Sequence record: PQ511148.1
Source of the DNA: Escherichia phage NHEP10
DNA length: 64,000 nucleotides
Strand: one strand, 5' to 3'
This document shows positions 59,921 through 61,334 of the stretch, one piece after another (the first letter of the stretch is position 1; each line of letters begins with the position of its first letter). Under the pieces are notes generated by a model. That model was not told where the DNA came from and did no database searches. It saw nothing but the letters and a program-made list of their open reading frames with translations. The position numbers and the translations under genes were made by a program.

Positions 59921-60250
59921 TTATACTCTAGGCTTTTGAGCTTGTTTGGTATTGGATTCCCATGCGGCTTTGGTAATTTTGTTAGCGGCATAACCAAAGG
60001 CATTAGATAGAACACCTTTAGAGTTGAATACATCTAATCCAATAAGTACACCGGCTGTGTTAAATTTAGGAGCAAAGTACGCATTAGTTTTAGAAAGAGC
60101 TTTTTTCAATTCAGGGTCTTGAACCAAGCCATCAAAAACGCCTTTACTATTTACTTTATATGTTACTTTGGGATTTTTACCTTCTTCGATAGCAGCTTTC
60201 TGTTCTGCAGATAATGTAACTTCAGTGATAAACTCTTGATATGTTTTCAT
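59921..60250 (-). CDS. Internal-protein-like (capsid-targeting sequence MKTYQEFI)
   Basis: 109 aa; N-terminal MKTYQEFITE matches T4 internal-protein capsid-targeting sequence. Confidence 0.65.
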   Translation of the reverse strand: MKTYQEFITEVTLSAEQKAAIEEGKNPKVTYKVNSKGVFDGLVQDPELKKALSKTNAYFAPKFNTAGVLIGLDVFNSKGVLSNAFGYAANKITKAAWESNTKQAQKPRV

Positions 60251-60313
60251 TTTTGTTTACTTGTTTGTTTTGATAGAGTAATTATACCATATTAATACTT
60301 AAGCGTAAACAAT

Positions 60314-60574
60314 TTAAGCTTTACCGCCAGAAATAATTCCGAAGTTGTTAAAATCGTATCCAATATCGTCAACATTTACTTTAGGTCTTGCTACAACATA
60401 AGCAATTTCACTACGTTTTGCATAAGTGTTGATTTCTTTACCATCGCCACCTAAGAAAGAATACCCATTACGTTTTAATGAGCCAAAGTCTTCCGCATCA
60501 CCAATGAAAGCTTTAACTTTAAATTTAGGACCTTTGTCATCTGCTTCAGCGATAAATTCTTGATACATTTTCAT
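60314..60574 (-). CDS. Internal-protein-like (capsid-targeting sequence MKMYQEFI)
   Basis: 86 aa; N-terminal MKMYQEFIAE. Confidence 0.65.
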   Translation of the reverse strand: MKMYQEFIAEADDKGPKFKVKAFIGDAEDFGSLKRNGYSFLGGDGKEINTYAKRSEIAYVVARPKVNVDDIGYDFNNFGIISGGKA

Positions 60575-60580
60575 TTTTCC

Positions 60581-60994
60581 TTAGTAAATTGATTTACCAT
60601 AGTATTTGTACCAAGTCGGACGTTGAGCAATTTTTTCATCTAAGCGAGCTTGACTTATCGCAATGGACGCTTCGGACGGGACATAATTATTACGAAATTC
60701 GGCAGGGATGTCGGAAATATCCTGGACAGTCGTGTCCTTGATTTTGAAACCACGTTTCAAGCATTCAGCGATTAGCTCGATTTGACGTAAACGTAAAAAT
60801 TCGAGTTTGTCGTAAAAGAATGTTACGTGGCCTGTGCCTAATATAAATCTTGGAGAGATTTTAAAATCCTTTACACGTTTACCGTTTTGAACATGTTTAC
60901 GGACTGCACCAAATACGCGTGGTAATTCACGATACTCAGCCATAAGATGTTGGTCGGCCAGTTCAGAAACGAGTGTTAAATTGATACGAGTCAT
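60581..60994 (-). CDS. denV: Endonuclease V (pyrimidine-dimer DNA glycosylase) DenV
   Basis: Start [29 protein letters not shown] gives 137 aa; near-identical to T4 DenV. Confidence 0.92.
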
Positions 60995-60997
60995 AAT

Positions 60998-61051
60998 TTC
61001 CTCCAAGTAGTTGATGAATGTATAGTATCAAAGTCCTTGGAGGAAGTAAAC
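60998..61051 (-). promoter_or_regulatory. Early promoter (GTTTAC) within 10-bp perfect inverted repeat that includes denV SD
   Basis: ttcctccaag (60998-61007) and cttggaggaa (61036-61045); right arm carries GGAGGAA SD. Confidence 0.55.
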
Positions 61052-61052
61052 A

Positions 61053-61334
61053 CTATTTTTCTGAAGCGCCTGAAATATATTTTTCAAGACGTTGTTTCAT
61101 TAGCGAGCCGTTCTTAGCGATTTCTTCCGGTTTATCGCACATACGCAACAAGGCTTCAAGCTTAACGATATCGCTGGTGCGTTCAAATTTGCGAGTATCT
61201 ATCTTACTAGCAAGTTCAGAAATACGTGCTAATAGACTTTCAGCTTCAACCAAAGCTGCACCTAGCTTAGTTGCAAATGTGTCAGTAGCTTCGTTAAGAA
61301 TAGATTCTGATAAAAATTCACTATATGTTTTCAT
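61053..61334 (-). CDS. Internal-protein-like (capsid-targeting sequence MKTYSEF)
   Basis: Start set to [10 protein letters not shown] (ATGA overlap with lysozyme stop). Confidence 0.55.

Follow-up and report, generated by a model that had tools for sequence, protein, structure and literature searches.

What do three small neighbouring genes encode when they begin with nearly the same ten residues and then part ways? This question is raised by positions 59921-61334 of a 64,000-nucleotide stretch of Escherichia phage NHEP10 DNA (sequence record PQ511148.1; the whole analysed stretch is called the window here), where a first-pass annotation made from the letters alone had proposed three internal-protein-like genes with a common capsid-targeting leader. 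All three open reading frames (ORFs) were recovered with the leaders that had been quoted for them, each on the minus strand. The positions given for them, 59921, 60314, and 61053, are real gene ends, albeit the stop-codon ends, as the starts are 60250, 60574, and 61334; likewise, the interval does hold three internal-protein-like genes, but it also contains denV (60994-60581). We consider it probable that the locus comprises three internal (head) protein genes, each with a capsid targeting sequence (CTS) of about ten residues fused to an unrelated small body, and the products may act as GmrSD-type inhibitors once injected. The genes and their leader-coding sequences are as follows.

60250-59921, minus strand: ORF1, 109 amino acids, leader MKTYQEFITE, orthologue of RB69 ORF123c
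60574-60314, minus strand: ORF2, 86 amino acids, leader MKMYQEFIAE, orthologue of RB69 ORF125c, CTS-bearing internal head protein gene
61334-61053, minus strand: ORF3, 93 amino acids, Ip5-family internal head protein gene, orthologue of RB69 ORF127c
60221-60250, minus strand: ORF1 leader (CTS) coding sequence, joined to the upstream promoter module at ACAAAATGAAAAC
60545-60574, minus strand: ORF2 leader (CTS) coding sequence
61305-61334, minus strand: ORF3 leader (CTS) coding sequence, its ATG overlapping the stop codon of gene e (ATGA)

The six-frame translation of the window contains three copies of the motif M-K-x-Y-x-E-F-[IL]-x-E, compared with 7e-5 copies expected by chance from residue frequencies and none in 200 dinucleotide-preserving shuffles, and no other ORF of the window carries it. 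A chance or low-complexity match was ruled out by this shuffle test. Both T4 ipIII and ipII begin with MKTYQEFIAE, and the leaders of ORF1, ORF2, and ORF3 are identical to it at 9/10, 9/10, and 7/10 positions, respectively. Residues M1, K2, Y4, E6, and F7 are present in all three, making each leader one of the MKT(Y/F)xEF type, and the (I/L)-x-E motif of the prohead protease gp21 is found at residues 8-10 as ITE in ORF1, IAE in ORF2, and LSE in ORF3. For T4 IPIII, the first ten residues were shown to be enough for head incorporation, with targeting mainly via residues 4 and 7 and processing via residues 8 and 10, and an Asp10 exchange stops cleavage while leaving targeting intact (PMC9026906). 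The proposal that the leader is of the T4 capsid-targeting type is therefore well founded, since it matches the IPII/IPIII sequence at both the targeting residues (4 and 7) and the processing residues (8 and 10).

A DNA repeat search revealed that the 30-nucleotide leader-coding stretch alone is common to all three genes, with 87% and 73% of positions identical to the reference copy. ORF3 retains the key residues although its leader DNA is just 73% identical to that of ORF1. The leader also persists in distant relatives: the ORF1 orthologue of Dhakavirus-type phages (39% identical) reads MKTYQQFITE, an ORF2 orthologue with 64% identity reads MKTYEEFINE, and in six Mosigvirus orthologues of ORF2 residues 4, 6, 7, 8, and 10 are fixed, while residue 9 is A, I, T, or S. 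Because divergent orthologues retain the leader while the bodies of the paralogues are unrelated, the leader is, as far as the sequences tell, selected separately from the bodies that it precedes.

We were curious to know where the products would be cut. In addition to the site at residue 10, ORF3 contains a second candidate gp21 site, LNE at residues 13-15 (SILNE after residue 10), so that its sites lie after E10 and E15. The LNE motif aligns with ITE 13-15 of the internal protein Ip5 and is kept in a variant (P0016, MKTYNEFLTVTTLNE) that is without E10, suggesting that the mature N-terminus of ORF3 may be A16. ORF1 has a second I-x-E site as well, which ends at E23. Two leader changes were found in the RB69 reference (NC_004928). 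In ORF123c (3422-3451, compared with window 60221-60250) a GAA to GCA change gives E10A, where the other six genomes read ITE, and this exchange would block canonical gp21 cleavage, with the next I-x-E ending at residue 23. In ORF127c (4832-4876, compared with window 61290-61334) the leader reads MKTYMNFYQNLSL, owing to a compensated frameshift of one 1-nucleotide deletion and one 1-nucleotide insertion about 20 nucleotides apart, neither of which is seen in the window or in six other Mosigviruses. The latter change would be either a sequencing error or the mark of a strain without the residue-10 site that keeps Y4 and F7; the RB69 reference sequence is known to contain sequencing errors (PMC13326640). 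As for the machinery that would read the leader, RB69 gp21 and gp22 are 88% and 76% identical to the T4 proteins, and we infer from the 97-98.6% nucleotide identity of the window to its relatives that the window phage has both, encoded outside the window.

The three proteins had been said to diverge completely after the leader, and BLASTP past residue 10 indeed gave no match among them (E > 2). Nor did their mature parts match T4 Ip2 and Ip3 (BLASTP, E > 0.3). PHROG assignments, by which alone T4 Ip1 was compared with the window ORFs, differ throughout: Ip1, Ip2, and Ip3 belong to phrog_4363, phrog_7857, and phrog_5341, whereas ORF1, ORF2, and ORF3 belong to phrog_3966, phrog_2667, and phrog_3499. 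Among the known systems, T4 IPII and IPIII are most readily placed beside the window ORFs: they are small non-essential genes between e and denV/vs.8, with the same type of ten-residue leader and an I-x-E gp21 site, although their mature parts are without sequence similarity to the window proteins. T4 IPI (Ip1), which is packaged and injected and provides the functional paradigm of the whole class, has a related N-terminal motif (MKTFKEF...ITE) and a mature size of 76 amino acids, equal to the ORF2 body after residue 10; in contrast to the window ORFs, its leader comprises 19 residues, its mature sequence is unrelated, and it is encoded at the other ip locus.

ORF3 falls into phrog_3499, 'internal head protein', with E = 1e-46, and shares 48% identity with Ip5 of RB32/T2 over 72-84 residues (E = 1e-15 to 1e-18), a homology found for ORF3 alone of the three. 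The RB32 record itself describes Ip5 as similar to RB69ORF127c and as a protein that 'replaces ipI'. By these matches ORF3 belongs to the Ip5 family, whose members in T2, T6, RB32, and RB15 share with it the (I/L)-x-E site ending at residue 15. Unlike ORF3, they lie at the 57B-tRNA locus in place of ipI and have an IPI-type leader, MKTFKEFATKTTITE, with no residue-10 site, while ORF3 adjoins e, has a leader of the MKTYxEF(L)xE form, and carries sites at both 10 and 15.

ORF2 falls into phrog_2667, 'internal head protein', the family of Ip7 (RB32/T2) and RB69 ORF156c, with E = 9e-20. BLASTP gave no match between the mature parts of ORF2 and Ip7/ORF156c, and homology past the leader is not established. 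The idea that ORF2 is a diverged Ip7 was set aside as unproven, as the hhalign match (probability 89%) is limited to columns 1-43 and driven by the leader. Relatives of ORF2 were found in 219 phage records, which cover Mosigvirus, SP18-like, and STML-198-like genomes as well as some from Tequatrovirus. Public data also include ORF2 variants that are truncated or frameshifted (P0006, P0011, and P0012).

ORF1 falls into phrog_3966, 'unknown function'. It was found in 90 phage records, and among the 30 listed, all but one call it 'hypothetical', the exception being an overlapping ADP-ribosylase annotation. In RefSeq, RB69p125 and RB69p127 are labelled 'internal head protein', and RB69p123 and RB69p124 hypothetical. 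An exhaustive HMMER search with ORF1 (1.84 billion representatives) added one further family, the Dhakavirus WG01_115 type (P0019, 39% identical); its other matches, to long proteins and several of them in many short stretches, were judged spurious, and a word-indexed protein search returned close relatives only. Orthologues of ORF2 and ORF3 are thus already known publicly as internal head proteins and the locus type itself is textbook, while ORF1, of the RB69 ORF123c family, is by its leader a CTS-bearing member for which the records listed give no internal-protein annotation.

Pairwise comparisons yielded summed pN/pS values (nonsynonymous relative to synonymous differences) of 0.22 for ORF1, 0.47 for ORF2, and 0.00 for ORF3, next to 0.03 for denV and 0.05 for e, and the three ORFs are therefore real genes. 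In six Mosigviruses ORF3 shows 46 synonymous and 0 nonsynonymous differences. The ORF2 protein changes faster than those of its neighbours denV, e, and ORF3, and charge-changing substitutions shift the isoelectric point (pI) of its body from 8.2 in the window to 4.9 in RB69. After residue 10, the ORF1 body is basic (pI 9.7) and that of ORF3 has a pI of 6.3, compared with 9.6 for T4 IPII and IPIII.

In a comparison that matched 419 phage records, the window shared 97-98.6% nucleotide identity with Mosigvirus genomes (NHEP11, GADS24, RB69, and others), and by this measure the window phage is a Mosigvirus, that is, an RB69-like T-even phage. On the minus strand the genes follow one another as nudE, e (lysozyme), ORF3, denV, ORF2, ORF1, and vs.8, compared with nudE, e, ipIII, ipII, denV, and vs.8 at the equivalent T4 locus; the order thus differs from that of T4 in that denV of the window lies between ORF3 and ORF2. 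All three ORFs lie inside e-denV-vs.8, one of the two T-even ip loci, the other being 57B-tRNA. The elements around them are listed here.

61331-61819, minus strand: gene e (lysozyme), upstream neighbour of ORF3 and translationally coupled to it
60994-60581, minus strand: denV (endonuclease V), Pfam Pyr_excise, phrog_1183, an intervening gene and not an internal protein
60281-60309, minus strand: sigma-70/T4-early-type promoter TTTACG-17-TGgTATAAT, within the invariant promoter/5' untranslated region (5'UTR) module

For ORF3, the TTG at 61349 offered by the program that listed the ORFs is a possible start, while the ATG at 61334 makes the leader N-terminal and is the one that overlaps the e stop codon. 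A vs.8-like ORF (59209-59784, minus strand) belongs to phrog_1488 (function unassigned) and contains the P-loop GGRQSGKST, with weak, sub-threshold matches to AAA domains and the ATPase at the N-terminus of large terminases. It is separated from ORF1 by a non-coding spacer of 136 nucleotides (59785-59920) with a GC content of 46%, versus 37% window-wide. The spacer did not fold more stably than shuffled sequence and had no Rfam match, nor did an Rfam scan of the whole window give any; in the equivalent region, NHEP11 annotates a small plus-strand ORF.

How such a set of genes comes to share its first ten codons may be read from the slot between ORF2 and ORF1, which was compared in seven Mosigviruses (the window phage, NHEP11, RB69, SQ17, S143_2, PNJ-6, and NHEP36). 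RB69 has an additional ORF124c between ORF125c and ORF123c, and other members of the group carry other cassettes.

Window phage and NHEP11: slot empty
RB69: ORF124c (leader MKTYKEFIAE)
SQ17: IpIII-like gene
S143_2: ORF124c and IpIII-like gene
PNJ-6 and NHEP36: IpII-like gene

Every slot cassette starts with the leader, and the joints lie inside or beside the leader-coding sequence. The promoter/5'UTR module GTTTACGCTTAAGTATTAATATGGTATAATTACTCTATCAAAACAAACAAGGAAACAAAAATG (window 60251-60313), with the layout GTTTACG-17-TGgTATAAT...AAGGAAACAAAAATG, is invariant upstream of the first gene after ORF2 in all seven, its Shine-Dalgarno sequence being weakened in the window and NHEP11 (AAGGAAAC to AAGTAAAC). 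The sequence directly upstream of ORF1 varies with the preceding cassette, and in SQ17 and S143_2 it is the T4 ipIII-ipII intergenic region. In the window, the region upstream of RB69 ORF124c is fused to the ORF123c body within ACAAAATGAAAAC, which accounts for the length difference of about 340 bp seen in the nucleotide comparison. As the joints fall in leader-coding DNA, the leader-coding sequence doubles as a recombination joint. We surmise that it serves as portable homology, at which recombination would swap cassettes, and that the window would represent a minimal, three-cassette version. Polymorphic ip cassettes have long been described (Repoila et al., 1994, as cited in PMC12373910), and the locus is a clear natural example of cassette swapping via the leader-coding sequence.

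The first-pass annotation had further suggested that, if the phage DNA carried a different sugar, the injected proteins might target a different set of host nucleases. A different sugar, arabinose, is indeed indicated. The arabinosyl-5-hydroxycytosine cluster of RB69 is present at window 19422-25915 (minus strand), 97-100% identical to RB69 p045-p055, and two Mosigviruses, RB69 and phage NP, have DNA that contains mono- or poly-arabinosylated 5-hydroxycytosine (PMC13326640, PMC13390438, PMC6024577). The cluster includes a kinase, arabinosyltransferase 1, 5hodCMP synthase, p050, p051, p052/53, and arabinose-5-phosphate isomerase, and a dCTPase is encoded at 11033-11551. No match to the second arabinosyltransferase (RB69p003) was found within the window, whose start falls inside gene 39. 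At 19968-20867 (minus strand) the window has a single ORF of 299 amino acids (putative arabinosyltransferase 1) versus the split ORF046c/ORF047c of the RB69 reference, in agreement with a published statement that this split is a sequencing error.

The consequence drawn from it, a different set of target nucleases, is doubtful, with observations on either side. The ORF1 family is seen only in Mosigvirus and WG01-type (Dhakavirus) phages, that is, in lineages which both have 5-hydroxycytosine (5hoC) glycosylation genes. In Dhakavirus WG01 a partial, diverged arabinosylation cluster occupies 21955-26102, where 5hodCMP synthase is 79%, arabinosyltransferase 1 63-69%, p051 62%, and p052/53 41-44% identical, and the first 34 kb of WG01 hold no homologue of p003, p050, or p055. 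The association of ORF1 with 5hoC is confounded by phylogeny, as just two related lineages are involved. In contrast, the families of ORF2 and ORF3 (Ip5) also occur in Tequatroviruses with glucosylated hydroxymethylcytosine, T4-like IpII and IpIII occupy the same locus in some Mosigviruses, and RB69-type phages retain their own near-identical ipI outside the window, the RB69 IPI being four residues from that of T4 (PMC6024577).

That T4 internal proteins are injected anti-restriction factors, as the annotation had stated, is now established: Ip1 inhibits GmrSD of E. coli CT596 (PMC12373910), IPIII was found in 2022 to be needed on ECOR17 (PMC9391042), and in 2025 Ip2 proved to inhibit the GmrSD of ECOR21 and Ip3 that of ECOR17, with no cross-protection, so that each of the three inhibits one GmrSD subtype (PMC12373910). 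GmrSD-family enzymes including BrxU cut RB69/Mosigvirus DNA (PMC13390438, PMC6024577), and type IV restriction is therefore a real pressure on Mosigviruses with their arabinosylated DNA. An anti-restriction function of the three window proteins is plausible on two counts: in T4, each of Ip1-3 counters a single GmrSD subtype, and GmrSD enzymes cut the arabinosylated DNA of Mosigviruses.

By analogy with T4 IPIII, the leader would bind the gp22 scaffolding core, mainly through Tyr4 and Phe7, and the protein would be built into the prohead. There gp21 would cut after (I/L)-x-E, at E10 in ORF1 and ORF2 and at E10 and/or the family-conserved E15 in ORF3, and the mature proteins, of about 8-11 kDa, would remain with the DNA in the head and be ejected together with it into the next host. 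Their action in the host would most likely precede phage gene expression, as stoichiometric inhibitors of first-line defences, and the best candidate targets would be the GmrSD-family type IV subtypes that cut arabinosylated-cytosine DNA, each blocked by a protein of its own, as with T4 Ip1-3. The confidence that we attach to these steps is not uniform. Packaging, cleavage, and ejection of the three products are, by analogy, highly probable, whereas their type IV anti-restriction function, likewise argued from T4, is put forward tentatively, as something that may or may not hold. It would be a still bolder, and in our estimate improbable, step to regard ORF1 as an unrecognised injected inhibitor of a type IV enzyme for arabinosylated cytosine, with ORF2 and ORF3 blocking further subtypes.

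Several observations weigh against the interpretation as packaged GmrSD-type inhibitors. A canonical late promoter TATAAATA was looked for in the locus and none was found, and ORF1 is preceded by the early-type promoter and, in the window, by the weakened Shine-Dalgarno sequence. Late expression of the locus via read-through is plausible from the sequence: upstream of e, near-consensus late boxes AATAAATA and TATAAACG take the places of the two TATAAATA late promoters of T4, within a hairpin that masks the ribosome-binding site; the ORF3 ATG overlaps the stop codon of e, a late gene; and the ORF2 start lies 6 nucleotides past the denV stop codon. If the RB69 leader changes in ORF123c and ORF127c are real, cleavage at position 10 would be dispensable in that strain. 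When Ip4-10 of T4-like phages were screened against 15 GmrSD groups, no inhibition was reproducible (PMC12373910), so that a GmrSD target should not be taken for granted, in particular for the Ip5 family. Fold information is absent as well: Pfam and NCBIfam searches of the three proteins gave no match, a sequence search of solved structures in the PDB gave chance-level matches only (E > 0.1), and AlphaFold models of ORF1 (single sequence, predicted local distance difference test score, pLDDT, 49) and ORF2 (four-sequence alignment, pLDDT 56.6) were too poor for fold searches. Finally, a literature search gave no virion proteomics or genetics for the three products or their orthologues, nor any RB69 or Mosigvirus virion proteomics, and no mention of ORF123c, ORF125c, or ORF127c.

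These negative screens of Ip5 and the other Ip4-10, which covered representatives of 15 enterobacterial GmrSD groups, together with bodies that are unrelated to Ip1-3 and to one another, agree with the idea that the window proteins are packaged and injected anti-defence proteins aimed elsewhere, be it at other modification-dependent nucleases, immediate-early defences, or host functions. However, the screens relied on glucosylated T-even phages and a limited panel, the sole internal proteins with known targets, namely Ip1, Ip2, and Ip3, all hit GmrSD variants though they are mutually unrelated, and both ip loci have been argued to be hotspots for inhibitors of the GmrSD system (PMC12373910). 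We thus regard targets other than GmrSD as unlikely.

A specific host target might be lacking altogether if, as in the classical view, the proteins were packaged via the CTS as accessory, mostly basic polypeptides that fill the scaffold and neutralise or condense DNA. The basic ORF1 body would suit such a role, being close to T4 IPII/IPIII in pI, and both the tolerance of the locus to cassette loss and gain and the failure to detect GmrSD targets for Ip4-10 (PMC12373910) are in line with it. The near-neutral ORF3 body and the drift of ORF2 to a pI of 4.9 in RB69 are nevertheless ill-suited to charge neutralisation, the strict conservation of ORF3, with 0 of 46 changes nonsynonymous, argues for a specific fold or partner, and all three T4 internal proteins proved to have specific anti-restriction targets (PMC12373910); we take this role to be quite unlikely. 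The notion that the common 5' end serves only as a module for recombination and translation initiation, preceding ordinary early cytoplasmic accessory proteins that are never packaged, can draw on the cassette joints within leader-coding DNA and on the ORF1 early-type promoter with no late promoter nearby, but is very improbable in view of amino-acid conservation precisely at the targeting and cleavage residues with synonymous and neutral variation elsewhere, the loading of foreign proteins into T4 heads by the ten leader residues (PMC9026906), the conservation of gp21/gp22 in RB69, and the fact that the T4 internal protein genes share both locus and leader.

Packaged internal proteins thus remain our preferred reading of the three genes. 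The practical value lies in correcting the annotation, in which ORF1 becomes a CTS-bearing internal protein, and no new principle emerges from the locus. Injected internal proteins counter modification-dependent restriction before phage expression, and each known one is specific to a single GmrSD subtype; should the reading of ORF1 as an inhibitor for arabinosylated cytosine be true, it would define new pairs of inhibitor and nuclease for a DNA hypermodification that is not based on glucose. Phage-therapy collections often contain RB69-like phages, whose cytosine is arabinosylated rather than glucosylated, and knowledge of the targets of their internal proteins would help to predict host range.

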